Source: Candidatus Magasanikiibacteriota bacterium
Lineage (GTDB): Bacteria > Patescibacteriota > Patescibacteriia > Magasanikbacterales > UBA922
Length of the DNA stretch: 64,000 nt
Reading direction: 5' to 3'
NCBI GenBank assembly: GCA_003518365.1
Contig: DOYU01000010.1
Coordinates: 1,938 to 65,937, forward strand
Shown: positions 11,083 through 61,164 of the stretch, in pieces
Position numbering within the stretch: the first letter of the stretch is position 1
Layout of the letters: each line of letters begins with the position of its first letter
Program-made: the position numbers and the translations under genes
The notes under the pieces: generated by a model
What the model saw: only the letters and a program-made list of their open reading frames with translations
Told to the model about the DNA's origin: nothing
The model's database searches: none

Positions 11083-11163
11083 AAGAACGTTTGGGTATAC
11101 TCAATGAAACCGCTCTAGAAGCGGATATTTTTATCAATTTGAAGGAGAGATTAAGGAACATGT

Positions 11164-11628: not shown

Positions 11629-11633
11629 TCTTT

Positions 11634-11682: not shown

Positions 11683-11780
11683 AATTTTTATCTCAACAAA
11701 GCAAAAAAAGACGACTTTCCCCAAAAGTTGTCTTTTTTATATATATTTGTTACTATAAAGAGCGTAAATAAGCGAAAAAT

Positions 11781-13253: not shown

Positions 13254-13255
13254 AT

Positions 13256-14718: not shown

Positions 14719-14754
14719 ATTGTTTATTGTTATTTGCTTATTGTGTATTGACAT

Positions 14755-16005: not shown

Positions 16006-16025
16006 CCGATATTGTGTAACTCAGG

Positions 16026-16055
16026 TCTGAAGACCTGAGAGTCACGCAGATTTAC
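16026..16055 (+). repeat. REP hairpin (GTAACTCAGGTCT-GAAG-ACCTGAG) upstream of RAYT
   Basis: Near-perfect palindrome; same core as 16571..16590. Confidence 0.7.
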
Positions 16056-16056
16056 T

Positions 16057-16581: not shown

Positions 16582-16594
16582 AGACCTGAGTTAC
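16569..16594 (+). repeat. REP hairpin (CTCAGGTCT-GAAG-ACCTGAG-TTAC) overlapping RAYT stop
   Basis: Identical 20-nt palindromic core to the upstream copy, same orientation. Confidence 0.7.
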
Positions 16595-16596
16595 AT

Positions 16597-17340
16597 TTGT
16601 TTATGCAAAAAACGGCATCACAATCTAAAATCTTAGTTGTTCTCCCCGGCTGGAACGGCTCGCATGAAACATGGACAGACTTTGTAGCACTTGCAAAACC
16701 GCATTTTCAAGATGTCGTGGTGATAGATTTGCCGTGCTTTGGTGATGAACCGTGCCCGAAAGCAGTGTGGGGCGTAGAGGAGTATGCTGAGTTTGCGAAA
16801 GAAAAAATAAGCAAATATGCAAATAGGCAAATTGTATTGCTGGGGCATAGCTTCGGAGGATCCGTAGCAACCCAGCTTGTTGCGAATAATCCAGACATTG
16901 CTTCTAAACTCATTCTGAGTGGAGCTGCTGTCATCCGTCCGAAAAATTATCTGAAACGATTCATCTTTGGGACAATGGCAAAGATTGGAAAAGGTTGTAT
17001 TGCCATTCTGCCATCACAAAAGCTAAAAATTCTTGCAAAAAAGGTACTCTATCGAGTAGCCGATTCACCAGATTTTTCAAATACAAGTGGCATCAAACGA
17101 GACATTTTTAAAAAGATTATTCGACAAGATCTCCGGCATCTTCTTTCGTCCATTGCTATTCCAACCTGCGTGATGCAAGGGACAGAAGACACCTATGTGC
17201 CATTCCGACATGGAAAAATTATTGCTGATGGGATTCCATCTGCATCGTTTGTTGTGATAGAGCAGGGGACACATGGATTGCATCAGAAAAAGACCGCAGA
17301 AGTCTTTTTATCTGATATACTAGAGTTTTGTAACAAGTAA
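16597..17340 (+). CDS. alpha/beta-fold hydrolase
   Basis: Nucleophile elbow GHSFGG; ~247 aa. Confidence 0.6.
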   Translation: MFMQKTASQSKILVVLPGWNGSHETWTDFVALAKPHFQDVVVIDLPCFGDEPCPKAVWGVEEYAEFAKEKISKYANRQIVLLGHSFGGSVATQLVANNPDIASKLILSGAAVIRPKNYLKRFIFGTMAKIGKGCIAILPSQKLKILAKKVLYRVADSPDFSNTSGIKRDIFKKIIRQDLRHLLSSIAIPTCVMQGTEDTYVPFRHGKIIADGIPSASFVVIEQGTHGLHQKKTAEVFLSDILEFCNK

Positions 17341-17348
17341 TATTTTGT

Positions 17349-18944
17349 ATGAGCGTTCCATATTTTGCATATATCATAGGAGGTCTCTGGATTGTAACGG
17401 CAATATTTGATTATGCCTATTTTACCTACTTTGCACAACTAAAAGAATATCGTTTTGATCGATTCAGGGATTTTTTGACAACACAAGCAGGCAAGGAAGA
17501 ATTGTTTGGGTATCGTATCCTTTGGCGGGCATTGCTAGTTATTGTATTATATACACTTTTGCATGGGACACTGTCCAATATGTTGCTTGTTTCGTGTATT
17601 ATCGGGATTGATATCATCGCAAAAATATACTGTATTTGGAGAAAATCAATTCGTCGTCCAGTGCCAACACCAAAAGCACTTCTCATCGTTGGCATGCTTG
17701 TAGGTATGGAAGGAATGATGCTGTTGTTCCTACCATATATCAATATTTTGTTATTGGTGCTTGTATTTAGATGGTTTTTGACAGCCGGAGTAGTTCTTAT
17801 CCTCTCTATTCCATCCTTTCTCGCTAAAAAAATGTATATAATGATAGCAACAAAGAAAATTGCCAGATATAAAAAATTACGCGTTATTGGCATTACAGGG
17901 AGCTATGGCAAAAGTAGCACAAAGGAATTTTTATCACAGATACTCGAAACAAGATATGCAATCAAAAAAACACCAAAAAATACCAATACGGAAATAGGAA
18001 TTGCAAAGCATATTTTGAAAACAGACTTTGCCGGGGTAGATGTCTATGTGGTGGAAATGGGTGCATATCGCATGAAGGAAATAAAAAAAATATGTGATAT
18101 CGTACATCCGCAGATAGGGATTTTGACAGCAATCGCCCCGCAACATCTTTCCCTCTTCGGTTCTATGGAAAACATTGCCGCAACAAAAAAAGAACTACTC
18201 ACATCACTCCCAAAAAATGGATGGGCTATTACCAATATTGATAATGCATATTGTAGAGAGATTATTTCTAATCTTTCTTGTCATATTCGAACATTTGGCT
18301 CAGATGAAGAATACAAACCAGATATTCTTATTCGTGATATAGAAAATATTGAAAACGGCATTACCTATCGTGTGTCTGACGATACGATGGATCATATCGT
18401 ACGTCTCAATATTTTAGGAAAGCATAATGTTTTTAATATTGTTCCTGCAGCTATAGCCGCTCATCGGATTGGCATGTCAGATGAGGATATAGATATGGCA
18501 ATCGAAAAACTTACACCTGGACATGGTTCGATAACAATATCACCCTATGGAACGGCGACGATCATTAATGATAGTTACAATTCCAATCCAGAAGGTTTTA
18601 AAGCAGCGTTAGATATATTAAATTCATTTTCTTCTTCGAGAAAAAGAATTGTTATCACGCGTGGGATGAGAGAATTGGGTGATCTCAGTGATGAGCTGCA
18701 TGAACAAATAGGCGGAGAGATTTCGTTTGTTGCAGATGAACTTATTATTACCGAAAAGGATGTCGCAGCATCTCTCGCAAAAGGTGTCGTGTCAAAATAC
18801 AACACACACATACAGCACATTTACGATCCGCACGAACTCCTAAAGTATGTACAAGGGTTGAAACATACAGATGCCGTGGTATTAATTGAAAATAGACTCC
18901 ATATCATGATTGCAAAAGAGTTAGATATCGCATTGACCGCATGA
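17349..18944 (+). CDS. Mur ligase family protein (MurF-like) with N-terminal polytopic membrane domain
   Basis: Residues ~1-170 hydrophobic helices; then Mur ligase P-loop VIGITGSYGKSSTKE and C-terminal Mur ligase domain; canonical MurF N-terminal substrate domain not recognizable. Confidence 0.7.
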   Translation: MSVPYFAYIIGGLWIVTAIFDYAYFTYFAQLKEYRFDRFRDFLTTQAGKEELFGYRILWRALLVIVLYTLLHGTLSNMLLVSCIIGIDIIAKIYCIWRKSIRRPVPTPKALLIVGMLVGMEGMMLLFLPYINILLLVLVFRWFLTAGVVLILSIPSFLAKKMYIMIATKKIARYKKLRVIGITGSYGKSSTKEFLSQILETRYAIKKTPKNTNTEIGIAKHILKTDFAGVDVYVVEMGAYRMKEIKKICDIVHPQIGILTAIAPQHLSLFGSMENIAATKKELLTSLPKNGWAITNIDNAYCREIISNLSCHIRTFGSDEEYKPDILIRDIENIENGITYRVSDDTMDHIVRLNILGKHNVFNIVPAAIAAHRIGMSDEDIDMAIEKLTPGHGSITISPYGTATIINDSYNSNPEGFKAALDILNSFSSSRKRIVITRGMRELGDLSDELHEQIGGEISFVADELIITEKDVAASLAKGVVSKYNTHIQHIYDPHELLKYVQGLKHTDAVVLIENRLHIMIAKELDIALTA

Positions 18945-45893: not shown

Positions 45894-46205
45894 AGCATAT
45901 TGCTGTGTTTTGTAGTGCTCGCCCTGCTCAACGATTTCCGAACTTTTGACTGGGCAAGCGAATACAAATATCCGACGGTAGTTTTAGACCAAATGAAAGA
46001 AATGCTGGCCAAGTACGCGAATGTATAACCCGTTCTTGCCCCATGTTTGCCCGTGTGGCGAGCGGTTCGAGCGAAGTAAGAGATTTGTACCAATCTGGAA
46101 ACCAAAAACGATTGTGAACGAATTTTGAGACTTTAAAACGATTTGCTTAACTTCGGAAAAGTTAAGCAAATATGACTCCGCTAGACTTGTTCCGACGGCA
46201 AGCGT

Positions 46206-46526
46206 ATGTTCTTGCTTGCTATGGATGACAATGACATTGAAGCGATCCTTCGGGACGCTAAAAACGTAAGAATGCCACATCGACGCGGATCATTTAATCC
46301 GTTATCTTCTCTTCCAGAACCAAAAGCCAAAATCAAACAAGCAATCAAGGAAAGAATCAGACTCTTGGCCGGTGCTTATATCTCACTGGCTGGATTTGTA
46401 GACGATGACGATATCCGGTTTGCCGAGGATAATCCAAAGTCAAAGAAAACTCGAGCAATGTATCACAAAGTGCTCGAGGATATGGAAATAGCAAAAAAAG
46501 AAATAAGGGAATTTAAAATATTATAG
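46206..46526 (+). CDS. hypothetical protein
   Basis: 106-aa ORF at the left edge of the accessory segment; no motif recognized. Confidence 0.35.
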   Translation: MFLLAMDDNDIEAILRDAKNVRMPHRRGSFNPLSSLPEPKAKIKQAIKERIRLLAGAYISLAGFVDDDDIRFAEDNPKSKKTRAMYHKVLEDMEIAKKEIREFKIL

Positions 46527-46699
46527 TAACTCTTCAAGCTCAACGGCATCGTCCTCGTCCACACCCAAATCTTCCATGATCTCCTGCACACGCTCGGCCG
46601 TGTCCTTATCAAGATCGTGACTTTCCATAAGCTCGACGACTTCTTTGTTTGGAGCTTCTTCGGCTGGTTCATCTTTAATTGGATCGTTATCGTCTACCA
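46520..46699 (-). CDS. small highly acidic protein (59 aa), last gene of the dcm/GHKL operon (frame absent from ORF track because <60 aa)
   Basis: Own six-frame read of 46520..46699: MVDDNDPIKDEPAEEAPNKEVVELMESHDLDKDTAERVQEIMEDLGVDEDDAVELEELL; about 40% Asp/Glu. The overlapping track ORF 46463..46672 is low complexity. Confidence 0.3.
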
Positions 46700-46714
46700 T
46701 AGCCCATATTTACT

Positions 46715-48388
46715 TTAGGCTTTCCCTGATAATAATGTGATAAGTCTGCCTTTAATATTTTCATAAACCGATGTTAGCTTCTTTTTCGCCGCATCAGTTA
46801 AAAGTGCTGTGTGAGCAAGAGAGTCTCGAATTGGCTTATACTCGTTTGCGTCTCTCGCAAGACAAGCCTCCTTAGTTGGATCTTTTGCTTTATCTACGAG
46901 GTATGCGAGATCATTCATGGATAAATAACTCAAATCACTATTATTTTTACGAATACCAATACTAACGTTGCCTTTATTTTTAGACTCTGTTTCTACTTTT
47001 TTCCATTTCGCAATTTCTGTTTTTGCTTCCTTTGACAGGGTTATTTTCTTTTCACCAATATAATTTCTGATTAAATTTTCTGACACAAAACATTCCGCAT
47101 AAGAACCAAAATTATATTGGGCATCATCAGCAAGATCATTAACCCACGTGTCAATTTTCTTTTTATGTTTTGATTTTCCTGCAACTGTGTATTCTTTGGA
47201 AACAGTGTTAAATAACTCCATTGATTTCCTATCTCGAGGGGTCATTCTCTCGTTTTCTGAATCGCCATCCTTCCTGTGGGCTATTCTCCATTTGTCCCAA
47301 TCTTCAACGATTTTTAATATCACACTTTTTCGCAGAGTATCTAGAAACTTTTTATATTTTGGATCATCGGCAACCACACCCTCTCGACTACTAGTAAATA
47401 TATCATCACCACTATCAAGTTCATTGAAGTGAATCTGCCCATACAAATAATTCTCAGCTACTCGAGATGTCGGTATGTGTTTTAGGATATCTCTTTCTCG
47501 CAATCTTCCGTTTACAAAAAGGTCAATTCCGATTCTTTCCTCAGTCGTCATTATTTTAAGATCTCTTGGTCGTTCAACTGACGCAATAAATCCTTTCATT
47601 TTATTTCCTTTAAGAACGATGTCTCTTTGCTCGTTTTTTTCTGTAGTAAATCTCTTCTCAAGACTTTGAATGTAAGGATCTTTATGTTCATTTATTTTCC
47701 ATAAAAACTCTGTTTTTTCAGCAAGATCATTGAGAGATTCGTGTGTGACTTTGTCGCCATCAATAAAAATATTAAATGTTTTATCTAAAAGTGAAAAACG
47801 AAAATATAAAGCAACAATCTTTTTCAAAAATTCTAAGCTATTTTGTATGCCGTCCTTGATGCCCTCAAAATAAATTATTGTGCCGTGTTTGTGATCTTTT
47901 GTATGGGTAGCAAAAGTGCTTTCTGTCCACGATCCAAGAGAATACTCCTTGGGAGTAAGATCTTCTGTTATTGCCTTGTCCAAACCCGAGTTATCAATGA
48001 CACCACCAATATAATTGCTGGATTTAGTTTTTGAGATAACAGTTATTTTTTCCGCACAAGATAACAAGGCTAATTTACCAATACCTTTTCTGCCTATAAA
48101 AGGTCTGCCCTTAGGGGAGGCGGAACCGCCATTTTTTCTCTTTGAGTATCCAATTTTCAAAAACTTATTTTGAAAATCATCCTTTGTCATACCCAAACCA
48201 TCATCCTTAATAAAAAAGCTATTACCTTTTTTATTGATATAGATTGAGACATTTTTTGCGTCAGCATCCCATGCGTTAGAGATTGCTTCTCCGAGAACCG
48301 TTGCAAAACTTCTGTACAGATTTCTTCCTAAGTGATTTAAGACGCTCAGTGAAATCTCAAAAGAGAAATTATCATTATTGTTTTTCAT
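46715..48388 (-). CDS. GHKL-superfamily ATPase (HATPase_c_3; MORC/paraMORC-like) associated with R-M genes
   Basis: Bergerat-fold motifs: N box EAISNAWDADA, G1 IKDDGLGMT, G2 GRKGIGKLA; overlaps dcm by 14 nt. Confidence 0.7.
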   Translation of the reverse strand: MKNNNDNFSFEISLSVLNHLGRNLYRSFATVLGEAISNAWDADAKNVSIYINKKGNSFFIKDDGLGMTKDDFQNKFLKIGYSKRKNGGSASPKGRPFIGRKGIGKLALLSCAEKITVISKTKSSNYIGGVIDNSGLDKAITEDLTPKEYSLGSWTESTFATHTKDHKHGTIIYFEGIKDGIQNSLEFLKKIVALYFRFSLLDKTFNIFIDGDKVTHESLNDLAEKTEFLWKINEHKDPYIQSLEKRFTTEKNEQRDIVLKGNKMKGFIASVERPRDLKIMTTEERIGIDLFVNGRLRERDILKHIPTSRVAENYLYGQIHFNELDSGDDIFTSSREGVVADDPKYKKFLDTLRKSVILKIVEDWDKWRIAHRKDGDSENERMTPRDRKSMELFNTVSKEYTVAGKSKHKKKIDTWVNDLADDAQYNFGSYAECFVSENLIRNYIGEKKITLSKEAKTEIAKWKKVETESKNKGNVSIGIRKNNSDLSYLSMNDLAYLVDKAKDPTKEACLARDANEYKPIRDSLAHTALLTDAAKKKLTSVYENIKGRLITLLSGKA

Positions 48389-49445
48389 AATATTTTAGGT
48401 GGTTCTTGATACTCTTGCCAATGACTGATCCCAGCCTTACTGGTACTGCATTTCCAATAAACTTCGCTACTTTAGTAACTACCATAGCGTCTTCAGACTC
48501 GGTAAATTTATAATTTTCAGGGAATGTTTGAAATATTGCGGCCTCCCTTAAACTTATAGCACGATTTTGTGTTGGGTGACCAAAACGACCATTCCCTAGA
48601 CCTATACATTGTGTGGTCATAGTCGGTGCTGGTTCATCCCATCTCATCCGACCGTATACGGTGCTTCGATAGGTCTTTCCGGAAGCCTTTTTGTGACAAG
48701 TAAGCATTAGATCTTCACTCCAGCTTTCTGAATTTCCACCATTGTGGGGAGTTGCCTTGATTCTCTCAAGATTTATTGGATCAAGTTTTCTTGCCTTATG
48801 GAGAGGGTCTTTTTTGCTCGTTTGACCATCTTTGATTGGTTCAAGGTGCCTGATGACATCACGAACAGTAACTCTTTTATCCTTGTGAGTTCTTTTTATC
48901 AATTCAATTTCACCAAACCTTGAAGCCAACAAAACTAATCGTTTTCGTTTTTGCGGTACGCCAAATTCTGAAACATCTACTACTTCATATTTATATTTAT
49001 ATCCATTATCCACCAGCGTCTTAATAAACTTAGCAAAAACGGGATATTTATTTGTGTCAGCTAAACCACTAACATTTTCCATTGAGACAATGTCTGGCTG
49101 AATAGCCGCGATAAGTTGAGCAAATTTGCCCAATGGCTCAAGTTGCTTTTCAGTAACTTTTTTTAAGTTTAATCTTGAAAATGGCTGACAAGGTGCGCAA
49201 CCAGCAAGAACACGAATCGTACCCTTTTTTGTTCCAAATAATTTATTAATTTGATCAGGCGTTACCTTGAGAATATCACTATCAATAAATTGAGTTTTGT
49301 TGTTGTACTCATAACCAAATTTACAGCTTGAATCGTTATCAATTCCTGCTACCACATCTAAACCCTCCTTGATAAGACCATGTGTAAGTCCACCAATGCC
49401 ACAAAATAGATCAACGACTTTAATTTTTGAGGATTGTGATTTCAT
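48375..49445 (-). CDS. dcm: DNA (cytosine-5)-methyltransferase
   Basis: Motif I DLFCGIGG, motif IV GCAPCQPFS (PCQ), motif VI ENV (SMENVSG). Confidence 0.85.
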   Translation of the reverse strand: MKSQSSKIKVVDLFCGIGGLTHGLIKEGLDVVAGIDNDSSCKFGYEYNNKTQFIDSDILKVTPDQINKLFGTKKGTIRVLAGCAPCQPFSRLNLKKVTEKQLEPLGKFAQLIAAIQPDIVSMENVSGLADTNKYPVFAKFIKTLVDNGYKYKYEVVDVSEFGVPQKRKRLVLLASRFGEIELIKRTHKDKRVTVRDVIRHLEPIKDGQTSKKDPLHKARKLDPINLERIKATPHNGGNSESWSEDLMLTCHKKASGKTYRSTVYGRMRWDEPAPTMTTQCIGLGNGRFGHPTQNRAISLREAAIFQTFPENYKFTESEDAMVVTKVAKFIGNAVPVRLGSVIGKSIKNHLKYYEKQ

Positions 49446-49467
49446 ACTAACAATAATTATATCAGTT

Positions 49468-49486
49468 TATCGAAAATTTTTCGATA
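49468..49486. promoter_or_regulatory. perfect 9-bp palindrome TATCGAAAA-t-TTTTCGATA upstream of dcm
   Basis: Located 23 nt upstream of the dcm start in the 105-nt gap between operons; candidate operator. Confidence 0.35.
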
Positions 49487-49550
49487 GCAAATCTTGCTTA
49501 TTTTTACTGAGTAAGTCCAGTACTTTCACTTTTAGGGTAATCTTGAGCTA

Positions 49551-51086
49551 TTATACCGTACTGTATAAAACGGAATTATTTTCAACGTGGGTTAAAAATT
49601 CCTCGATTGTTTTTGGCAAGATCGAAAGATTCTCTTTCTCCTTAACATAATTAATCTGCATTACAGAATCTTTGAATATGCTAGGGGCCACAAAGTAACA
49701 CATAGAATCCTTTGTACCTTTTTGGAATTGGCTCAAATGTCTTGAGATCGGCCACACTTCCATCATAGTTTGCATGCGTCCCTCCGACATTGTAACTTCG
49801 ACTAATATACCCTTAACATCCTCGAAACATTCAATGTCACCCTTATCTCCAACGCCTCCAGCTGTTGATGTTGGGAGACCTTCATCGTCGTAAGGATAGT
49901 TTGATACCACTCTAACATTTGGAAACTTGGATTTAATAGCCAAAGACACAAGAAACTCTAATCTGACAGGATTTGATAAGTATTTCAAAACATCATCTTT
50001 TGTTAATCTCTTCTTGGCCAAATTTAACATTTCATCTTTAATCCTGTTCCAAGGATAAATACCAACCCACTTAGCCAAAAAGGCGTCTCTCTCGCCGACA
50101 CTTACCGGCTTGGCAACAAACGAGATAAGATTTTCATCCACAGCCGACATATACTCAAAATATGATTCCTCTGTGGTGTATTTTTTATAATCAGAATAAG
50201 TTGCTAAAGCATAATCAACCTTAGTTTGTTCATTTCTGTTTATATCAATAAAACGACCAGCACCTCTTAATGAGATCAATCCTGTTAATCTCATTTTTCT
50301 AATAAACTCATCCGGATAGTCAACCATTATCGACTTCGGATTAAATTTCTTAAAATCACCGTCCATGATCTGGTTAACACAAATATCCACAATAACTTCC
50401 CAGCTCGGGGTATAGCCGTGTTCTTTTCTGATTTTCTTTATAAGTTTGTAAAGCTTCTCGGCGTCGTTATCTTTCCAGAAAATAACCAAGGGCAATTCTA
50501 ATTTTGAAATTCCGGTCCCGTTTAAATCCTTGTCAGCATTTATTTTATTAATCACACTCAGTAGTAAAATCAGCGGTGCATTTTCATTGAGTACTCGCCT
50601 GAATGGACTATTGCTTTGATATTTTACAAATGCATTCAGAAAAGCCTGTTGTTCAAATTCTGGGTGTTCGTTATCAACCAATTTTAATCCAATATCAGAA
50701 AATCTTATCTTTTCACCGTTTTTGTAATAAACAAAACCAAGCTCTTTGGCAATCTTAAACCAAGTATCAAACCGAGAAGCCCAGCCCTTACTAAAACCGG
50801 CTTCTTTATGATTTTGCGGATTATCCTCAAGAACCTTTTTCACTTCAGAATCAGACAACGGCTCTTTTGTTTCAATTTTATTCTTTACAACAGCACTTAT
50901 GTTAGTCGGCTTATATAGTCCGACCCGAATAACTTCACCGGAGATTTCTTCAGCCAACTGATCGTCAAGCACTTTTCCGTTGTAATCTTTAAGTACTCCC
51001 AAAAACCACTTAAGCCTTTCTGGGTTTCTAAGTGTAGTAGTAAATAATAATGGTTTATATTCTGATTCTCTTGTTTTTGTTTTCAT
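49551..51086 (-). CDS. hypothetical 511-aa protein; candidate restriction endonuclease partner of the two adjacent adenine methyltransferases
   Basis: No methyltransferase motifs; possible PD-(D/E)XK-like stretch GDKGDIECFEDVK near C-terminus; operon context with two alpha-class N6A methyltransferases. Confidence 0.4.
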   Translation of the reverse strand: MKTKTRESEYKPLLFTTTLRNPERLKWFLGVLKDYNGKVLDDQLAEEISGEVIRVGLYKPTNISAVVKNKIETKEPLSDSEVKKVLEDNPQNHKEAGFSKGWASRFDTWFKIAKELGFVYYKNGEKIRFSDIGLKLVDNEHPEFEQQAFLNAFVKYQSNSPFRRVLNENAPLILLLSVINKINADKDLNGTGISKLELPLVIFWKDNDAEKLYKLIKKIRKEHGYTPSWEVIVDICVNQIMDGDFKKFNPKSIMVDYPDEFIRKMRLTGLISLRGAGRFIDINRNEQTKVDYALATYSDYKKYTTEESYFEYMSAVDENLISFVAKPVSVGERDAFLAKWVGIYPWNRIKDEMLNLAKKRLTKDDVLKYLSNPVRLEFLVSLAIKSKFPNVRVVSNYPYDDEGLPTSTAGGVGDKGDIECFEDVKGILVEVTMSEGRMQTMMEVWPISRHLSQFQKGTKDSMCYFVAPSIFKDSVMQINYVKEKENLSILPKTIEEFLTHVENNSVLYSTV

Positions 51087-51090
51087 ATAT

Positions 51091-51996
51091 TTAATAATTG
51101 GTAATTAACACTTCCTTGATCTGTTTCTTACCGTTATTGTGATAGCTGATATAATTGCTTTCAATTTTGTGCGTCTTATATTTTTTCATCCAATCAATCA
51201 GTAAATCATTTTTACTTCCGTTATAATGGGTTACATTTGATAGGGCAAACTTTATACCCTTCTTATCCAAATCATCAATCATCCCCAGCAAGTCGGCTTC
51301 AGCTTTTTGATCCCACCGCTTGTTGTATTCGCTTGCTGTTATCAGATAGGGTGGATCTAAATAAACGAAATCATTCTTAGAATATTTCCGGTTTGCAAAA
51401 TAAGCTCTGAAGTCCTTTGAACTTAAAGTCATCTTCTTATCTTGCACAAAATCAAAATAACCATTCAGAGCGTTAACAACATTTTTATTAAAATCGACAT
51501 TGCCAACCGGTAAATTAAATTTACCACCACCATTAAACCTCAACATTCTATTAAAACCATAGATAAGTAGAATATACAGAATTAAAGGATCATTCTTTAT
51601 GTGTTTATTTACGCAAACTCTTAATTTTTCGTAGCCCTCTTTATTAAATTTGGCAAAATAGGTCTTTTTCCATTCTTTTTTTAACGAGACCGGAATTATA
51701 TCTTCTTTATAAGATCGTGATAGGTGATATTTCTTGATTATCTTTTCTACATTCTTAAAAAATAAAGTTGGGTTATTTGCACTATTAATTAAGAAACGAT
51801 GTATGTTGATTAAATTTTTATCGTTATCATTTAAGTAGTATTTATTTGCGTTAATATTTAAAAAGACAGTACCACCGCCGACAAATGGTTCGTAAAAATT
51901 GTCTACTTCCTGTGGAAATAAACCAGCCAGTTGCTTCATTAATTTGTATTTATCCCCGACATAAAATAGCGGGGATCTCTTAATTTTATTTTGCAT
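51091..51996 (-). CDS. Dam-family (D12-class, alpha) N6-adenine DNA methyltransferase
   Basis: Motif X YVGDKYKL, motif I EPFVGGGTVFLN, motif IV DPPY (VYLDPPYLIT). Confidence 0.8.
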   Translation of the reverse strand: MQNKIKRSPLFYVGDKYKLMKQLAGLFPQEVDNFYEPFVGGGTVFLNINANKYYLNDNDKNLINIHRFLINSANNPTLFFKNVEKIIKKYHLSRSYKEDIIPVSLKKEWKKTYFAKFNKEGYEKLRVCVNKHIKNDPLILYILLIYGFNRMLRFNGGGKFNLPVGNVDFNKNVVNALNGYFDFVQDKKMTLSSKDFRAYFANRKYSKNDFVYLDPPYLITASEYNKRWDQKAEADLLGMIDDLDKKGIKFALSNVTHYNGSKNDLLIDWMKKYKTHKIESNYISYHNNGKKQIKEVLITNY

Positions 51997-53803
51997 GGTT
52001 TACGGTGGTTACAAATAAATACTCTTTATGGTTTTTGAAATCGGTATTGCCAGCGTTGAAATGCCTGTAGTCTTTTTCAAAGACTTTAGTTTTTCCCTTT
52101 GCCGATAAAATATCCTTGATCTCTTGTAGAGTAATTTTATTTTTTGATGAATTGCTTTTTGAATCGTAAGTATTATTGTAAGACACGACTAAATACTTGG
52201 CATTCAAATCTTTTACTAATTCGGCAAGCCTGTCTTTTGCTTGAACACGGCAATAATCGCTCATATTTTCCTCCTGAGGCTTCAGGGCGGTCCCAAACAA
52301 CTCTGGCTTATCCCATTTCGTTAAAGTTTCTAGGACATGGTAGAAACGACTATACTGCCTCGAGTTATAGGGTGGATCAATATAAACAATGTCAGCTTTA
52401 ATTTTTTTAGCTAAGAGGTTCGTATCTTCTTTATAAATTGTGACATTTTTTACTTCAATCGGATCAATAGGTCTCATAAAAAATCCGTCTTCGACATGTT
52501 CTTTTTTGAAATATGCATCATAGTGACCAACTGTATTGGCAACCTTATCGATTGAATACAATAACGAAGCAATAAGAATATAATATTCTTTATCCGACAG
52601 GTTCTTTCTGTTTTCCTCTATAGTTTCTCTAATGAACCCTATTATTTTGGCTGAGTTGTGGCTAAAATACTTACCGCCAAAATTAGTAGAAAAATAATTA
52701 TTCTCTAAATCACCACCGTCAATGTTGTTGTAGTCTTTGATAATATTTTCAATCTTGTTTTTATCCCATTCTCCATTGCCAAAAAAGGCTTGATAAATTG
52801 CATAGTTAGAATGTAAAAAATCGTTAAGAATGATTTCATCATAGTGTCTGGCCGCAACAGCCGAAACCACTCCGGTCCCAGCAAAAATATCAGCGAAAGA
52901 GTTGCCTTTTTCGCACTCCTTATTAATTACGGAAAATATCCATTCAATAAGTTTGTGCTTACTGCCAATATATCGGCGGTTTTGTAATTGTAAATAATTC
53001 TTTTTTACCTGTGGAATATAAAAATAATTCTCCTGTACTTTTTCGGCACTTATTTCGTAAGCTGGTTTTTCAAGCTCTAAAAGAGCAAACAAAGTTCCTT
53101 GTACACCGTCAGCTACATAGTCATAACTCTTTTTATCTTTGCTTAATTTTTCAAAAAAGCTACAGCTTCCGTTCTCCGCTGTGATAATAAAATCAATAAC
53201 AGCAATGCCCATTATCTCTCCAGCTTGGGATATTTTTTGTACCACCTCAATATCTCTTGTACTGGGAGATGAATCTCCGGAGGGGTGATTATGAACTAAT
53301 ATGATACTAGCGGAGTTAAGTTCTACTGCTGGATGAAAAATTTCTCTGGGATGTATTAAGCTTTTATCTAGCAAACCTACACTAATAATTTCTTTCTTTA
53401 TCAAAACATTTCTGGCGTTAAGATAAAGACACACTAAATATTCCTTTTTCTTGTCTCGTAGATCGTATGTTAAAGATAAAACATCCTGTTGGTTTTTTAT
53501 GATAGTGTCGCCACCTTTTTCTTCATCATAAAATCTTTTTACTAATGAAATGGCAGAAATAATTTGTAAGGCCTTGGCTTGCCCAATACCAGAAACCTCT
53601 AATAGGTCTTCAACTTTAATATTTAAAAAATTCTTGCCAAATTTCTTAATAATCTGTTCTGATAGCTGTTTAACATTTTTGCCTTTAATCCCACTACCCA
53701 GAAGAATCGCCAAAAGATCACTCTTTGAAAGTGCTTCTGATCCTTTTTTAAGGAACCTCTCTCGAGGACGATCTATTTTGGGGATGTCTTTTATTTTTGG
53801 CAT
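51986..53803 (-). CDS. fusion: RadC-like JAB/MPN domain (N) + alpha-class N6-adenine DNA methyltransferase (C)
   Basis: RadC signature HNHPSGDSSPSTRD preceded by an HhH-like region; then YIGSKHKL (motif X), DIFAGTGVVS (motif I), VYIDPPYNS (motif IV). Confidence 0.75.
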   Translation of the reverse strand: MPKIKDIPKIDRPRERFLKKGSEALSKSDLLAILLGSGIKGKNVKQLSEQIIKKFGKNFLNIKVEDLLEVSGIGQAKALQIISAISLVKRFYDEEKGGDTIIKNQQDVLSLTYDLRDKKKEYLVCLYLNARNVLIKKEIISVGLLDKSLIHPREIFHPAVELNSASIILVHNHPSGDSSPSTRDIEVVQKISQAGEIMGIAVIDFIITAENGSCSFFEKLSKDKKSYDYVADGVQGTLFALLELEKPAYEISAEKVQENYFYIPQVKKNYLQLQNRRYIGSKHKLIEWIFSVINKECEKGNSFADIFAGTGVVSAVAARHYDEIILNDFLHSNYAIYQAFFGNGEWDKNKIENIIKDYNNIDGGDLENNYFSTNFGGKYFSHNSAKIIGFIRETIEENRKNLSDKEYYILIASLLYSIDKVANTVGHYDAYFKKEHVEDGFFMRPIDPIEVKNVTIYKEDTNLLAKKIKADIVYIDPPYNSRQYSRFYHVLETLTKWDKPELFGTALKPQEENMSDYCRVQAKDRLAELVKDLNAKYLVVSYNNTYDSKSNSSKNKITLQEIKDILSAKGKTKVFEKDYRHFNAGNTDFKNHKEYLFVTTVNHAK

Positions 53804-53806
53804 ATT

Positions 53807-54055
53807 TTAATTCTTCTTTTTGGTTTTAATATTACTTGTCTCATCCAAAAAAGCATTGAGATCAGATTGCTTGATACGCCAAACACCAAGCTTGGATGCC
53901 TTTAACCTGCCCGACTCGATATATCGGGTGACAGTGCGTGTATGAACTCTTAAAATTTTGGCGATTTCTTCTATTGTGAAAAGTTTTTCAATTTCGTTCA
54001 TAAGAATTATATTAGTCGTTGATATCATTTTACCTCTTCTGCTTTTCATTGTCAA
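53807..54055 (-). CDS. excisionase-family HTH DNA-binding protein (Xis/AlpA/MerR-like)
   Basis: LFTIEEIAKILRVHTRTVTRYIESGRLKASKLGVWRIKQSDLNAFL matches the excisionase-family HTH pattern. Confidence 0.6.
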   Translation of the reverse strand: MTMKSRRGKMISTTNIILMNEIEKLFTIEEIAKILRVHTRTVTRYIESGRLKASKLGVWRIKQSDLNAFLDETSNIKTKKKN

Positions 54056-54174
54056 AATCGCCGTATTTTGTCATAATACACTTGTGGGGTTGAGTAATCA
54101 GATATTACCGACTCAATCCCTATATCCAAAAATTAGTGAATGGCTGGCATAAAATGGGTCCCATTCACTAAAAA

Positions 54175-54909
54175 ATGAACTGGGAAGTAAGGATTAGGCT
54201 TGCATCCAGTAAAAACATGACTATGAAAATGAAAAAGGCCTCAAAGACCACAAAATACAAATTCAACATAAAGAAAATTGTCTCTAAGTCAATGACTTAC
54301 CGTTTTTCTCTCGGAATAGTTAAAGATGTTGTAAAAAATGCTCTGGAAAATTCCGGTATCAAAAATTCGGATGATATTATAAAGAGGCACGAGGACGAGA
54401 TCGTAGAGCTAAAAGATAGGCTAAACAAAACAGACACTAAATTTGAAAGCTATAAAAAAGAGACTAACAAAACAATTGCCGAATTAAAAGATGAACTGGG
54501 AAAAGTTAGTAAACAGAACCTGACTCAGATCGGCCGAGAAATGGCTATCGGTTTTTATGAACAGAGCCAAAAGATACGGTCCAAACAGAAAGAAAAGAAA
54601 ACTAAAGAAACTTTGCTCTGCCTCTCCTCAGACGGCGATCTATACCTAGCGTCCAATCAACAAAAATGTTATCCGATGAGTAAAGAGAAAATGCGTGAGA
54701 AATTGATAAAAGTTTTATGCTCGGCCAAAGGTTATATCAAGACGGCCGAGTTGGCTGAAATGGTCGGCACGACCAATCAAGCGATTAGAAATTCCAAGCT
54801 GGAGATAAATAATAAATCTAAAAATCGGATTGGCATTGATAAACTGATTATCGGCCGTGACGGCAATGGCTATCGCTTAAATCCAGAATATAAAATCAAA
54901 ATACTATAG
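54175..54909 (+). CDS. hypothetical coiled-coil protein with possible C-terminal winged-helix
   Basis: 244-aa ORF divergent from the Xis-like gene; followed by terminator. Confidence 0.4.
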   Translation: MNWEVRIRLASSKNMTMKMKKASKTTKYKFNIKKIVSKSMTYRFSLGIVKDVVKNALENSGIKNSDDIIKRHEDEIVELKDRLNKTDTKFESYKKETNKTIAELKDELGKVSKQNLTQIGREMAIGFYEQSQKIRSKQKEKKTKETLLCLSSDGDLYLASNQQKCYPMSKEKMREKLIKVLCSAKGYIKTAELAEMVGTTNQAIRNSKLEINNKSKNRIGIDKLIIGRDGNGYRLNPEYKIKIL

Positions 54910-54942
54910 CGTAATAGTCGGTGTAGTTAATAACTTCAATGA

Positions 54943-54970
54943 GAGAGCCTGAAATAGGGCTCTTTTTTGT
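54943..54970 (+). terminator. rho-independent terminator (agagcc-tgaaata-gggctct + T-run)
   Basis: Hairpin followed by tttttt. Confidence 0.55.
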
Positions 54971-55055
54971 TGCCCAACTACACCTGGGCATTATTCCAAG
55001 AGATGGGCAACGATTGGCAAACTATAAATGTGTGAGAGTAAAAAAATGAAATGAT

Positions 55056-55307
55056 ATGCCAATCAAACAAAGTGAGAGTTTCAAGACCGCCGATCTGGCA
55101 TTGATCGCGGTGCTTTTATTATTAATGCCCGAATCTCTTGAGGTCGTGGATCGGACAAATCCGCATAAGGTCCTCTTTGGATTTAAAACTGACCGCAAGC
55201 TCGAAAAGCTTATGGACAGTTTTTGGAAACGAGAGCTTGTGGTCGAACCTCAAGCGTTCTTTAACCAAATCAAAATCGCCAAAGCCAGGATCTATGTCCA
55301 CGAATAA
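55056..55307 (+). CDS. hypothetical protein (island cargo)
   Basis: 83-aa ORF in GC-richer segment. Confidence 0.35.
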   Translation: MPIKQSESFKTADLALIAVLLLLMPESLEVVDRTNPHKVLFGFKTDRKLEKLMDSFWKRELVVEPQAFFNQIKIAKARIYVHE

Positions 55308-55309
55308 AT

Positions 55310-55519
55310 ATGAAGTTAAAACCGGAAACGCTGGAAAAACTCCGAGCGATTCTCAAAAAAGACTTTGGCCAAGAAGTGAATGATCAAGACCTCCACGATA
55401 TCGCATTCAATCTCGTGAGTTATTACGACGCTCTGTCGCGATTCTACTGGGAGGATATCACGAGCGGTCGAAAGCTTATAGAACCATATGACACAGTACC
55501 CGAGCGACAAACCACATAA
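55310..55519 (+). CDS. hypothetical protein (island cargo)
   Basis: 69-aa ORF directly following the previous one. Confidence 0.3.
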   Translation: MKLKPETLEKLRAILKKDFGQEVNDQDLHDIAFNLVSYYDALSRFYWEDITSGRKLIEPYDTVPERQTT

Positions 55520-56060
55520 GATCAGAGATTATCGCGAATTGCCGTTTGCTTACCAAGATAAGCCAGCTTTGCGGTACATGCGACAACAATGGCTCGATAA
55601 GCACATTAGCATTGATGCCTACCGGAATCTCCGGAACATGTATCTGGCTTTGACTGAGATTGCCTCCAACAAAGCCAGTCAAACCATAGAGGCGTCCAAC
55701 AAAACGCTTTTGATTTATTCCGGACTCAAAGACTGGCGAACGATTAAGAATTGTTTGTCCAAGCTCGAGGAGTGGGCTTTTATCGCGATCACAAAAACTC
55801 GGGGCGAGGATGCAAAGTTCAAGCCCCGAGGTATCACTTTGCTGTCCGTCCTACATCTGACGCAGGGTGGAAACCAATCAGCATCAAAAGCCGGACGGCA
55901 TAGCACGCAGACTGCCTCCGGTGCAGAAGATATAGAAGGTAATGGATTAAAAGAAATTAAAGAAAATAATAAAGAAATTAACGGCCGGTCCAAGAATTTA
56001 AAACTCTTGGCCGAGGCGAGAGCCAAACTCGTAGCTAAGATGACCCTACAAAACAAATGA
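55488..56060 (+). CDS. hypothetical protein, possible DNA-binding/replication-related (island cargo)
   Basis: 190-aa ORF; basic N-terminal half; no firm motif. Confidence 0.35.
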   Translation: MTQYPSDKPHKIRDYRELPFAYQDKPALRYMRQQWLDKHISIDAYRNLRNMYLALTEIASNKASQTIEASNKTLLIYSGLKDWRTIKNCLSKLEEWAFIAITKTRGEDAKFKPRGITLLSVLHLTQGGNQSASKAGRHSTQTASGAEDIEGNGLKEIKENNKEINGRSKNLKLLAEARAKLVAKMTLQNK

Positions 56061-56148
56061 TTTTCGGTTATAAACGGCAACATTTGGCAACGAAATGAGC
56101 AAAAAACCGATAATAAATAATCATTAAACGATACTAAATGATACCTAA

Positions 56149-56622
56149 ATGGCTAAATCTGTAGACATAAAAAATGAAAAATATCAGAATGCGATCCGCT
56201 TAAAATATGGCGATTTTACTTATTTAGAGATTGCCCGGATGCTTAAAGTTTCTCATGTCAGTGTAAAGAGATGGTTTCGGTCAGACGGCTTACTGAAAGA
56301 CGAATACGACCGATATGAAAAAGAAAGAAACCGTGTACGCGACAAAGAGACTGATACTGTGCTGGCGAGACATTCTGTAATTGCGGCCAATATTCTGGTC
56401 TCGCTTATGGGTGCCAAAAGCGATGTCATGAAATTCAGAGCTGTTAAAGCCATTTTGGATTATGTACTGGGTCCAGTAAGAACCATGGGCAGTGACGATC
56501 CTTACGATAACGCCGATTATCGGCGAGATAGCGACAGTATTGCGAGAATACTGGAAAGTGCTAGGAAAAGACAACAAAAATCCACTGTGGGCAACTCGAG
56601 CTTAGCTTGTCCGAAAAAATAG
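56149..56622 (+). CDS. HTH-domain protein (possible phage terminase small subunit-like or regulator)
   Basis: N-terminal HTH-like YLEIARMLKVSHVSVKRW. Confidence 0.35.
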   Translation: MAKSVDIKNEKYQNAIRLKYGDFTYLEIARMLKVSHVSVKRWFRSDGLLKDEYDRYEKERNRVRDKETDTVLARHSVIAANILVSLMGAKSDVMKFRAVKAILDYVLGPVRTMGSDDPYDNADYRRDSDSIARILESARKRQQKSTVGNSSLACPKK

Positions 56623-56681
56623 CGTATGTTGTGTCTTGAGACCAAAAGTCGAATTCGAACCTTAGTAAAATTAACAAAATT

Positions 56682-58469
56682 ATGACTATGACAATGCAAA
56701 ACGAAAATGAATCGATGCGAGCCGTAGGATATGCCCGTGTCTCCTCCAAGGATCAAGAGGACACTGGATACTCACTACCGGCTCAAGAAAAACTTCTACA
56801 CGATTATGCCGACAGAAACGGTTTTGATCTGGTAAAAGTTTTTGCTATTCAAGAATCGGCGGCCGGAAAAATCCAACGAAAGATATTCCACGAGATGTTG
56901 GACTATGTGACCAAAGCCAAGATCAATACGATCTTCGTGGAAACCACCGACCGTTTAACCCGTAACTTCGCTGATGTGCCGATAATTGACGAATGGATAC
57001 TGGCGGATGAAAAGCACACCATTCATCTGGTAAAAGAAGGCTGTACCTTACACAAAGACTCCAAGTCCCACGAATGGTTTATGTGGCGAGTCAAAGTGGC
57101 TACGGCCGAATATTATATCCGACTCCTTTCCGAGAATGTGAAAAAGGGGCAGAAAGAAAAATTGGCTCAAGGCTGGCTACCAAGCAAACCGCCACTGGGA
57201 TACCAGACCACTGGCGAGAAAGGACACAAAATCCATATCATTGATCCGGACAAATCGCCACTGGTCAAAAAGATGTTTGACCTTTACGCCTCCAATCGCT
57301 ACTCAACCAAAAAGCTGGCCGATGAAATGCATAAGCTTGGCATGCGGTCTCGAGGAGGAAATAAAGTCAGTCATTCAAGAGTCCACCAACTACTGGGCGA
57401 TCCGTTTTATTATGGAATGAATCGCTGGAACGGCAAAGTCGCTCAAGGCGGACACGAACCGCTGATAACCAAAGAATTATTCATGCGATGCCAAGACATA
57501 ATGCATAGCAACGGTACGCCGAAATACAACAAGCACAATCCGTTATTTAAAAATGTCTTCCACTGTGAGGAATGCAAAGGCCGGATAACTTGGGAGATAC
57601 AAAAAGGCCACTGGTATGGCCACTGCAACCATTATAAAAACTGCCAGCAAAAGGAATGGGTCAAACAAGAGAACATTGACCTGCAAGTAATGGAAAATAT
57701 CGAGCATTTAAGCTCAAAGCACAACGAGGCCATAGAGAATATGCTCACTTGGGTCCAAGAGGCACTCAAAGAAAGCCACGGCGAGGAGATAGAATTCCGA
57801 CAAAAGGCCACTGGCGAACTTGAGCGACGCTACCAAGTCGCCACGCAAAGACTGGATAAGATATACGATGACAAGATAGACGGCAAGATCAGCGAGGACT
57901 TCTACCAGAAAAAGTACCAGCAGTACAAAATTGAACAAGAGGAAGTGTTGGACGGACTGAATAAGCACAAAAATGCCAACCTCAAGTATTACGATATGGG
58001 GTCAACCTTTTTACAAATGGCCAAAGAGGCAAGGAGAATTTATTTGAACCGAAGCACGATTGAAATGGTCGACGACAAGAAACAACTTTTGTCCCTTTTA
58101 TTTTCGAACCCTATAATAAATGGCAAGAAAGTTGAGATTTCATACCAGAAAGCCTTCAAAATGGTATTTGAACGAGTATCACAGATGTTGGGAGAAAATA
58201 CAGACGAAAATACAACATTCGAACCGCTGAAAAAGCCCGTAGATAAAGAGAAAAGCAGAGCTTTTGGCTCTGCTCATCCCATATGGCTCGACGGGTGGGA
58301 CTCGAACCCACGACCAATTGGTTACACGTCATCCACAATTTTCATTGCGGCGTGGACTATATCATCACCCTCGCCTATTTCCGATCATGTCGGAATCGTT
58401 AGGGTGCGAAGCGCTTCCCCTGCATCAAATATGTTCGAACAAGGTACTCCCCGAAGGGATAGTCTCTGA
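56682..58469 (+). CDS. large serine recombinase (resolvase/invertase N-domain + recombinase domain + zinc ribbon)
   Basis: Catalytic Ser region GYARVSSKDQ; zinc ribbon CEECKGR...HCNHYKNC; the last ~60 codons are antisense to the tRNA-Asn 3' exon and intron. Confidence 0.8.
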   Translation: MTMTMQNENESMRAVGYARVSSKDQEDTGYSLPAQEKLLHDYADRNGFDLVKVFAIQESAAGKIQRKIFHEMLDYVTKAKINTIFVETTDRLTRNFADVPIIDEWILADEKHTIHLVKEGCTLHKDSKSHEWFMWRVKVATAEYYIRLLSENVKKGQKEKLAQGWLPSKPPLGYQTTGEKGHKIHIIDPDKSPLVKKMFDLYASNRYSTKKLADEMHKLGMRSRGGNKVSHSRVHQLLGDPFYYGMNRWNGKVAQGGHEPLITKELFMRCQDIMHSNGTPKYNKHNPLFKNVFHCEECKGRITWEIQKGHWYGHCNHYKNCQQKEWVKQENIDLQVMENIEHLSSKHNEAIENMLTWVQEALKESHGEEIEFRQKATGELERRYQVATQRLDKIYDDKIDGKISEDFYQKKYQQYKIEQEEVLDGLNKHKNANLKYYDMGSTFLQMAKEARRIYLNRSTIEMVDDKKQLLSLLFSNPIINGKKVEISYQKAFKMVFERVSQMLGENTDENTTFEPLKKPVDKEKSRAFGSAHPIWLDGWDSNPRPIGYTSSTIFIAAWTISSPSPISDHVGIVRVRSASPASNMFEQGTPRRDSL

Positions 58470-58713
58470 ACCTTTTTCCATGTATGGACGCACATACGTT
58501 TCTCTCTCAAGGAGAGTGCTCTTATGCACACCTATATAATCATACCTGAAAACTTGGCTGCGAATTGCCATACAGATCCACAAGGGATCTGCGAAGGGTT
58601 CTCGCAATTCACTTCGTTGGCATCCTTCTGTTTCTAGAAGGAGCTGCTAGTGCGCCTAGATTGCTCTATACGTCTATTTACAGCCAACTGCTCTACCGCT
58701 GAGCTACCGTCGA
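58284..58713 (-). tRNA. tRNA-Asn(GTT) interrupted by a group I intron in the anticodon loop (exons 58680..58713 and 58284..58324)
   Basis: 5' exon TCGACGGTAGCTCAGCGGTAGAGCAGTTGGCTGT; 3' exon TAACCAATTGGTCGTGGGTTCGAGTCCCACCCGTCGAGCCA; acceptor, D, anticodon and T stems pair; spliced anticodon loop CUGUUAA. Confidence 0.7.
58325..58679 (-). ncRNA. group I self-splicing intron (355 nt) within tRNA-Asn
   Basis: Conserved group I core R element GTTCAGAGACTA (plus 58460..58471) and S element GATATAGTCC (plus 58354..58363) forming P7; 5' exon ends in U, intron ends in G; internal guide GCAGCU can pair with exon end GGCUGU. Confidence 0.7.
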
Positions 58714-58769
58714 ATATGTTGTAATCGAGCATAGTGTACTCGACTTGTGTGAGCCTGTAAAGACTCTTG

Positions 58770-58840
58770 TTCGGGGACAGGGATTCGAACCCCGATAGTC
58801 AGGATCAAAACCTGAAGTCCTACCTTTAGACGATCCCCGA
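58770..58840 (-). tRNA. tRNA-Gln(TTG)
   Basis: Cloverleaf: acceptor TCGGGGA/TCCCCGA, anticodon loop TTTTGAT, T-loop TTCGAAT; 71 nt, no encoded CCA. Confidence 0.75.
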
Positions 58841-59000
58841 ATGTTTGATTATATTGGCTTTTTCTTCTCTCCCAAAGCCAGTCTTTACATACAATTCACT
58901 TCTTCAAAAGAAACGAATTTTTCACTGTGAATTATTCGTAAAGGCCGAAATACCTTTGTAGATTTTGTTTTTCCAGATTGATGATCCTTGAAACGCTGCG

Positions 59001-59909: not shown

Positions 59910-59911
59910 AG

Positions 59912-61080: not shown

Positions 61081-61091
61081 ATTGTTTTCTG

Positions 61092-61164
61092 AGCCACCTC
61101 GGGGAGTCGAACCCCGGACCTATTCGTTACGAGTGAATTGCTCTACCAACTGAGCTAAGGCGGC
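61092..61164 (-). tRNA. tRNA-Thr(CGT)
   Basis: Cloverleaf: GCCGCCT acceptor (one G-U), D-arm TAGCTCAGTTGGTAGAGC, anticodon loop CTCGTAA, T-loop TTCGACT. Confidence 0.7.

Follow-up and report, generated by a model that had tools for sequence, protein, structure and literature searches.

Group I introns of bacterial tRNA genes are classically members of subgroup IC3, and they interrupt tRNA-Leu (UAA) between positions 34 and 35, tRNA-fMet at 33/34, and tRNA-Ile2 and tRNA-Arg at 36/37. The interrupted bacterial tRNA types were expanded from 4 to 21 with tFind (Williams 2020 preprint, 10.1101/2020.01.27.920355), in a catalogue that included, according to PMC13011429, an 'Asn.4Ug' type corresponding to tRNA-Asn interrupted at 35/36. 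Group I introns at this site were then described in 15 tRNA-Asn and 3 tRNA-Asp genes in 95 complete Patescibacteria genomes (Nakagawa et al., mSystems 2026, PMC13011429; preprint 10.1101/2025.07.03.662931), with 19 of the 28 such insertions found among 4,934 complete genomes being patescibacterial; 25 of the 28 introns at 35/36 were classed IA, no IC introns were found in Patescibacteria, most members carried no homing endonuclease gene (HEG), and precise GTP-dependent self-splicing was obtained in vitro with an omega-G-to-C control (PMC13011429). Here, we describe a locus of a 64,000-nt stretch of DNA (hereafter the window; contig DOYU01000010.1) that is very probably a functional tRNA-Asn(GUU) gene of Magasanikbacteria-related groundwater Patescibacteria, interrupted between U35 and U36 by a 355-nt self-splicing group I intron devoid of an endonuclease gene. 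An earlier description of this DNA made from its letters alone (the sequence-only reading) had regarded an insertion at 35/36 of tRNA-Asn as unusual, a view that the catalogue and the experiments just cited make outdated.

The window intron is a fresh example of this published and experimentally validated class, and no new phenomenon, since it displays the testable features of the class. It shares with the published tRNA-Asn introns the host tRNA, the 35/36 site, a U at position -1, the terminal omega-G and an internal guide sequence GCAGCY that pairs with GGCUGU, together with the core elements GTGAA, AAGGTTCAGAGACTA and GATATAGTCC, a GAAA-capped P9, the 3' junction ...gtg/TAAC (the slash marks the splice site) and hairpins between P7 and P3'. 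Like most of these members it has no HEG; it is longer, at 355 nt versus 205-312 nt for the published HEG-less introns, the excess being accounted for by a 32-nt P1 loop and a branched P6 extension. Unlike the published members, the window copy also provides the site at which a serine-recombinase island has inserted. With the classical IC3 tRNA introns, which mostly have no ORF (open reading frame) either, it has in common that it is a group I intron of the self-splicing type, located in the anticodon loop and with a U.G wobble in P1, whereas the tRNA (Asn), the position (35/36) and probably the subgroup differ.

The two halves of the tRNA gene lie on the minus strand with a gap of 355 nt between them:

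58284..58713, minus strand: split tRNA-Asn(GUU) gene, with a 355-nt intron between anticodon positions 35 and 36
58680..58713, minus strand: 5' exon, TCGACGGTAGCTCAGCGGTAGAGCAGTTGGCTGT (ARAGORN, intron mode)
58680..58713, minus strand: content of the 5' exon, namely acceptor 5' strand, D-arm, anticodon stem 5' strand and C32 U33 G34 U35
58680, minus strand: U35, which is the -1 U
58284..58324, minus strand: 3' exon, TAACCAATTGGTCGTGGGTTCGAGTCCCACCCGTCGAGCCA (ARAGORN in intron mode and comparison at the island junction)
58284..58324, minus strand: content of the 3' exon, namely U36 A37 A38, anticodon stem 3' strand, variable loop, T-arm, acceptor 3' strand, G73 and CCA

When introns were allowed, ARAGORN reported tRNA-Asn(gtt) i(35,355) at exactly the coordinates that the sequence-only reading had assigned to two minus-strand tRNA halves 355 nt apart. 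Joining the exons gave a canonical 75-nt cloverleaf with a U1-A72 pair, discriminator G73 and an encoded CCA, in agreement with its earlier identification as a tRNA-Asn(GUU) with discriminator G; the last two bases of the 3' exon (CA, 58285..58284) come from the adjoining island. The split gene was missed by default ARAGORN and by the Rfam tRNA model, both of which report only two neighbours:

58769..58840, minus strand: tRNA-Gln(UUG), directly upstream of tRNA-Asn (default ARAGORN, Rfam)
61091..61164: tRNA-Thr(CGU), with G1 and discriminator U (default ARAGORN, Rfam)

Seven other contigs contain, at 100% identity, the entire 751-nt stretch that covers the locus; they come from independent groundwater metagenome assemblies and from the metagenome-assembled genome (MAG) GCA_003488405.1, and three shorter contigs match up to their ends (100%, 99.8% and 100%). 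Since the locus is identical in several independent contigs, it is not an assembly artefact. The contigs with a matching locus derive from Rifle groundwater metagenomes. We also considered that the tRNA genes might belong to a phage tRNA cluster and dropped this reading, as megablast of 56000-62000 against a phage collection gave no match.

The intervening sequence was recognised as a group I intron by two models. The Rfam model RF00028 (Intron_gpI), a check already advised by the sequence-only reading, matched 58333..58725 on the minus strand over its whole length (1-253) with 77.9 bits against a gathering score of 50 (E=4.4e-18). An nhmmer profile built from only the 11 published Patescibacteria tRNA-Asn 35/36 introns (Table S3, PMC13011429) gave two collinear matches, at 58648-58551 (E=6.2e-10) and at 58474-58325 (E=7.6e-15), the second of which ends on the predicted omega-G. 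The elements of the catalytic core were then located on a MAFFT alignment of 12 sequences, consisting of the window intron, two orthologues and nine published precursors, to which all counts out of 12 refer:

58325..58679, minus strand: ORF-less group I intron, 355 nt (Rfam RF00028, nhmmer profile, fold and covariation)
58642..58647, minus strand: internal guide sequence GCAGCU, forming P1 with exon GGCUGU (58685..58680), with a wobble U35.G
58460..58471, minus strand: J6/7 and P7 5' strand, R element GGTTCAGAGACTA region, invariant in 12/12 sequences
58354..58363, minus strand: P7 3' strand, S element GATATAGTCC, with ATAGTCC invariant in 12/12
58325, minus strand: omega-G, the final intron nucleotide; G/TAA is invariant and the alignment to the profile of published introns stops here

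The R element, the S element and the guide sequence GCAGCT are invariant or nearly so in the alignment with the 11 related introns, and the exon end CTGT is identical in all 12 sequences. P7, which had been predicted from the R and S elements, pairs 58464..58460 with 58359..58355 and does not vary in any of the 12. P1 had likewise been predicted, from GGCUGU and GCAGCU with a U.G at the splice site, and its pairs are kept throughout the alignment (U.G, G-C, U-A and C-G, each 12/12). The terminal G, also proposed earlier, is supported by the invariant G/TAA and by the end of the profile alignment, and this omega-G at 58325 corresponds by homology to the GCA_016700035.1 junction, which was sequenced experimentally (PMC13011429).

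Helices P1, P2, P3, P4, P5a, P6/6a/6b, P7, P7.1, P7.2, P8/8a, P9.0 and P9 were drawn on the window sequence and projected onto the alignment. Standard pairs occupied 82.4% of the cells of this model, versus 38-44% when the 3' partners were slid by 1-3 columns, and 47 of the 81 pairs showed changes on both sides, versus 16-27 in the slid registers; the observed covariation score was reached by none of 500 shuffles. Compensatory changes were many in P2, P3 and P4: pairing in P2 reaches 93%, and each of its six pairs covaries (CCTTCT/AGAAGG in the window, CCTCTT/AAGAGG and CTTGGT/ACCAAG in the orthologues L011 and L016), P3 is 97.6% paired with four covarying pairs, and P4 is 100% paired. P8 is 85.5% paired; as expected of peripheral helices specific to this lineage, P6a/b and P8a have lower scores across the wider alignment. 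An unconstrained minimum free energy fold of the intron alone recovered the same helices (-112.2 kcal/mol, z=-3.2, 0/100 shuffles as good), so that the P1-P9 folding check called for by the sequence-only reading came out in favour of the intron. Two hairpins, P7.1 (58459-58448) and P7.2 (58444-58418), stand between P7 and P3'; such hairpins fit the expectation for subgroup IA, to which the intron may belong. The intron carries no homing endonuclease, as had been stated before: the sole open frame of at least 60 aa on the intron strand, a 60-aa ORF, has no Pfam match at E<0.1, and a homing-endonuclease remnant was rejected on the same ground. In those published HNH-carrying introns whose 5' ends are readable in the source, the HNH gene likewise occupies the P1 loop, ahead of the guide sequence.

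Two splice registers agree with the rule that the 5' exon ends in U(-1) and the intron in G(omega): U35/...G58325, which yields Asn(GUU), and U33/...G58327, which yields Thr(UGU). The gene could accordingly be read as a tRNA-Thr(UGU) with its intron at 33/34, in which the 5' exon would end at U33 (58682) and the intron at G58327, both boundaries being shifted by 2 nt. ARAGORN accepts this alternative join as tRNA-Thr(tgt), the rule holds at both of its boundaries, the homologous genes of L017 and L018 are called tRNA-Thr by the same program, and ARAGORN and tFind often make that call for introns of this kind too (PMC13011429). The Asn register is nevertheless the correct one, because P1 holds U35 in a U.G wobble in 12/12 sequences while U33 sits in a Watson-Crick U-A pair in 12/12, which contradicts the Thr register, and because the profile built from published introns ends its alignment on G58325 and not on the Thr boundary. 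It is also favoured because U1, C2, G71, A72 and G73 are invariant in the Asn genes (U1-A72 and G73 across all 12), whereas the genuine tRNA-Thr of the window has G1 and discriminator U, and because the spliced sequence is closer to published tRNA-Asn than to that tRNA-Thr: its identity to the 11 published Patescibacteria tRNA-Asn is 78-84% for nine and 68% and 71% for two, compared with 71% to the window's own tRNA-Thr. The same 2-nt Asn/Thr ambiguity has been described and settled by sequencing the ligation product of the homologous GCA_016700035.1 intron spliced in vitro, which was 35/36 with the loop CUGUUAA (PMC13011429). The anticodon arm of that spliced homologue is identical to the one in the window, and the spliced window tRNA is 84% identical to the published tRNA-Asn whose ligated product was sequenced. 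Altogether, we consider the tRNA-Thr alternative very unlikely, and the insertion between positions 35 and 36 proposed in the sequence-only reading stands.

Splicing of the tRNA-Asn precursor would follow the standard group I pathway. The split tRNA-Asn would be transcribed together with the upstream tRNA-Gln, and the intron would fold into a group I core with helices P1-P9. An exogenous guanosine would attack after U35, held in the U.G wobble that P1 forms with the guide GCAGCU, the omega-G (58325) would then take the G-site in P7, and ligation of the exons would produce the anticodon loop CUGUUAA. We infer splicing at this locus from its sequence, structure and covariation, from homology to introns whose splicing was observed and from the retention of the split gene in relatives. 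The tRNA-Gln(UUG) and the split tRNA-Asn are probably co-transcribed. A sigma-70-like promoter match is found upstream of tRNA-Gln at 58848..58875 on the minus strand (TTGGGA-16-TATAAT, 10/12) and a second one in the Gln-Asn spacer at 58733..58761 on the minus strand (9/12), a number of matches that does not exceed that of shuffled sequence and is thus a mere hint of Gln/Asn co-transcription; the spacer is about 85% conserved versus L011.

The rest of the window encodes housekeeping functions (aminoacyl-tRNA synthetases, a penicillin-binding protein, Mur ligases, ClpB, SufB, FtsEX and a PrsA-like protein), and FtsX comparison places two Candidatus Magasanikbacteria MAGs nearest, with 87% identity; their lineage is given as Patescibacteria group / Parcubacteria group. 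The Candidatus Magasanikbacteria contig L011 carries a tRNA-Gln followed by a split tRNA-Asn as in the window, with identical exons and an orthologous intron. In L016, a more distant relative whose FtsX is 55% identical, the exons are again identical to those of the window and enclose a 330-nt intron (Rfam, 87.3 bits). L011 and L016 each have their own, different terminator downstream of tRNA-Asn. L016 also has the order tRNA-Gln, then split tRNA-Asn. Both L016 and L014 (CAZEYK010000047.1 and CAYXGV010000013.1, respectively) are titled 'uncultured Gammaproteobacteria bacterium'; they carry the 55% identical FtsX relative with a tRNA-Thr(CGU) upstream as in the window, and the Gammaproteobacteria labels are probably wrong. 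Two matches to Acido-Lenti-1 RNA (50.4 and 40.9 bits) flank the end of the FtsX homologue in L014.

Several observations weigh against a self-splicing, functional gene of this lineage. The peripheral insertions of the window intron, a 32-nt P1 loop and an extended, branched P6 (about 75 nt of extension), are unusually large and could slow folding, and P10 is weak, with at most about 2 bp. In the closest relatives, L011 and L012, the introns have an extra 47 nt inside P4, and some members of the lineage may therefore splice poorly or need help. The host, moreover, would be a Magasanikbacteria-related member of the Patescibacteria (Candidate Phyla Radiation, CPR) as judged by the similarity of neighbouring genes to MAGs and not by marker-gene phylogeny. 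The 47-nt insertion splits the P4 5' strand (L011 at about 9290..9340, L012 at about 9650..9700), and the hairpin within it differs between L011 and L012 by apparently compensatory changes; the L012 contig is truncated. Rfam did not report the L011 intron at its gathering threshold, and an absence of the intron from L011 was considered and rejected, the alignment showing that the 47-nt insertion in P4 explains the missed match.

These points could indicate a decaying ribozyme that splices inefficiently, so that this copy would be a pseudogene or depend on a protein cofactor, with tRNA-Asn supplied by another gene. Such decay would accommodate the large peripheral insertions of the window intron, as well as the insert inside P4 in L011 and L012 and the fact that L011 falls below the Rfam threshold. 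It is contradicted by catalytic-core elements that are all intact and invariant, by helices kept through compensatory changes among the window, L011 and L016, and by the rarity with which intron-bearing and intronless copies of the same tRNA coexist in one genome (PMC13011429). Full (100%) conservation of the exons alongside drift in the intron peripheries bears the mark of selection on the spliced product; because the exons are identical, the peripheries diverged and the helices retained by compensatory change, we favour selection for the spliced tRNA and hold a decaying intron to be unlikely.

The 3' end of the tRNA-Asn gene coincides with the end of an integrated island, which the sequence-only reading did not mention, nor did it mention the overlap of the gene with a recombinase ORF:

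45922..58285: integrated island, 12,364 bp, absent from the syntenic site of L011
58286..58290: att core copy 1, GCTCG on the plus strand and CGAGC on the minus strand, at tRNA positions 70-74; homology with the island-free L011 ends here
45917..45921: att core copy 2, GCTCG on the plus strand, at the far island end
predicted repaired attB after excision: CGAGC/ACTACAAAACACAGC (the slash marks the junction)
56682..58469, plus strand: large serine recombinase ORF, 595 aa as integrated (Pfam Resolvase and Recombinase)
45922..46028, plus strand: native C-terminal tail segment (ALLNDFRTFDWASEYKYPTVVLDQMKEMLAKYANV, then stop), in frame once the island ends are joined
58253..58275, minus strand: terminator-like hairpin and T-run downstream of tRNA-Asn, in island DNA and within the recombinase ORF of the opposite strand

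The island is bounded by a direct repeat of 5 bp and has a GC content of 37.8%, versus 41.1% for the rest of the window. Its cargo, as seen with Pfam, comprises an HATPase_c_3 protein, a C5 methylase, an AlwI-type endonuclease, a D12 methylase, a RadC-D12 methylase fusion (RadC/JAB), an HTH_17 protein, small ORFs and the large serine recombinase. L011 offers an island-free site for comparison, where 9045-9649 corresponds to window 58843-58286 and 9645-9850 to window 45921-45729. The 3' end of tRNA-Asn (core CGAGC, positions 70-74) would thus have served as attB for an island moved by the large serine recombinase, the recombination itself being predicted from these junctions.

The proximity of the island gives some substance to a refutation scenario raised in the sequence-only reading, in which the two tRNA halves are att remnants, fragments left by a mobile element or carried in with it, and what separates them, although group I-like, is DNA of that element. 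The serine-recombinase island does lie directly against the tRNA gene, and the recombinase ORF extends over the 3' half and into part of the intervening sequence. The junction, however, lies at tRNA positions 70-74, which places both halves and the whole intron on the chromosomal side. L011 and L016 have no island here and yet carry the same split gene with identical exons, which excludes the scenario; downstream of the gene, the L011 flank corresponds to the window beyond the island, and L016 has its own terminator before the contig ends. The same recombinase family also adjoins an intronless tRNA-Asn (L022). We therefore regard att remnants as an extremely improbable origin of this locus, and the tRNA-Asn gene as split by an intron.

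The 3'-terminal CCA is encoded in the island-bearing window, L017, L018 and L022 (GAGC/CA...), while L020, which is also island-bearing, reads GAGCCC with no encoded CCA, and the island-free L011 (9647..9652, GAGCATG) and L016 (at about 8770, GAGCAAT) do not encode it either. The island end thus usually mimics and completes the tRNA terminus and provides a terminator (58275..58253 here).

The recombinase has a PF00239 domain (83 bits) and a PF07508 domain (66.5 bits), and measures 595 aa in the integrated form and 571 aa in the excised form, both within the range of about 450-700 aa for large serine recombinases. Its ORF covers the terminator and continues in antisense across the 3' exon as well as 145 nt of the intron: codons 535-536, TGG CTC (W L), are antisense to the tRNA end GAG-CCA, and it is here that the ORF crosses the island junction, the last 59 codons (537-595) being read opposite that exon and that part of the intron. 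In silico joining of the island ends produced a 571-aa ORF ending in ...HPIWLALLNDFRTFDWASEYKYPTVVLDQMKEMLAKYANV, which gives the protein back a 35-aa tail agreeing with the WxDFRTxxW...P...LL consensus shared by about 30 of 120 homologues. These observations place attP, as a prediction, inside the recombinase's own 3' coding region. Because attP lies there, an ORF on the opposite strand overlaps the intron; this overlap is a by-product of integration and no evidence against the intron. A protein-coding region in place of the intron was rejected as well, since the last 61 aa are junction-derived, variable among homologues and replaced by the conserved tail when the ends are joined.

Homologues of the recombinase number 1,818, and the named sources are Patescibacteria-group MAGs. 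Tails were classified in the best 120 of the 1,818, and the counts are approximate, as a regular expression left 55/120 as 'other' and many were assigned by eye: about 30/120 have the tail W-(D/N)-D-F-R-T-x-x-W...P-E...L-L, about 45-50/120 end in antisense T-arm peptides (xDSNxxP...) and about 20/120 stop within two codons of WL. In the four contexts that were checked, the recombinase abuts tRNA-Asn(GUU) each time (L017, L018/L019, L020 and L022). The tRNA-Asn has a 195-nt intron in L017 and a 238-nt intron in L018/L019 (Rfam, 92.7 bits), where the island-end sequence is as in the window and the host neighbourhood is different; in L020, a second recombinase adjoins an intron-bearing tRNA-Asn, and in L022 the tRNA-Asn (4573..4648) is intronless. 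The L020 region 10001..18656 holds two tandem serine-recombinase islands next to the split tRNA-Asn, and the distal recombinase (P0015) takes its 'native-like' tail from coding sequence at the far end of the proximal island, which implies repeated use of the site.

The intron changes what the integrated recombinase gene reads. Counting from WL in its frame, the twelfth codon lies opposite tRNA positions 35-37 as their reverse complement, and it is a TAA stop opposite an intronless gene, as seen in L022 and in agreement with many 11-aa tails. At 58323..58325 of the window, the omega-G stands in place of U35 and makes this codon TAC (Tyr); since TAA becomes TAC, the ORF runs on into the ribozyme. 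We tentatively propose, with more doubt than confidence, that this is a Patescibacteria-wide recombinase family (more than 1800 homologues) whose attB would be the tRNA-Asn 3' end and whose attP would lie in its own 3' coding region ('HPIWL' being antisense of a tRNA-like ...GAGCCA). With attP placed there, integration would remove the conserved 35-40-aa tail (W-D-D-F-R-T-x-x-W...P-E...L-L) and put antisense-tRNA residues in its stead, which could switch the enzyme between an integration-competent and an integrated form. Where the intron is present, loss of the TAA stop to the omega-G would let antisense transcription and translation proceed through the ribozyme, and this could couple island expression to tRNA-Asn maturation.

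A comparable arrangement is reportedly found in myxophage Mx8 (intP to intX; work attributed to Tojo et al. 1996 and Magrini et al. 1999), where attP is said to lie in the 3' end of the integrase gene and attB at the 3' end of a tRNA gene, so that integration replaces the C-terminal residues of the integrase. The window island has in common with Mx8 the position of attP within the 3' end of the recombinase gene, that of attB at the tRNA 3' end and the replacement of C-terminal residues. The two differ in that Mx8 Int is a tyrosine recombinase that targets tRNA-Asp, whereas the window enzyme is a large serine recombinase that targets tRNA-Asn, with a shared core of only 5 bp. A literature search for serine recombinase integration at tRNA genes in Patescibacteria returned nothing relevant, its incomplete coverage making this weak evidence of novelty. 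The island side may be undescribed so far, while the intron itself is of a known kind, and it is the island, rather than the intron, that is the less expected part of the locus.

For the distribution of tRNA-Asn 35/36 introns, the window adds a Magasanikbacteria-related lineage to those published. Magasanikbacteria are a group that we take to be GTDB class ABY1. The intron table of PMC13011429 lists no ABY1 genome, and in the three ABY1 rows that are readable in its supplement, tRNA-Asn had already been found by tRNAscan-SE, which implies that the gene has no intron. Provided that Magasanikbacteria belong to ABY1, the window intron is a modest extension of the known distribution. Since default tools miss this essential split gene, a MAG of this lineage would seem to be without tRNA-Asn, and its completeness would be underestimated. 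The natural variants, with their P1-loop and P6 expansions and the 47-nt P4 insertion of the sister genomes, could inform on the peripheral load that this type of ribozyme tolerates. For the biology of mobile elements, the island is of more relevance than the intron: it suggests that tRNA-Asn is a preferred landing site in CPR bacteria for serine-recombinase islands with restriction-modification cargo, and that the C-terminus of the recombinase is remodelled by integration.

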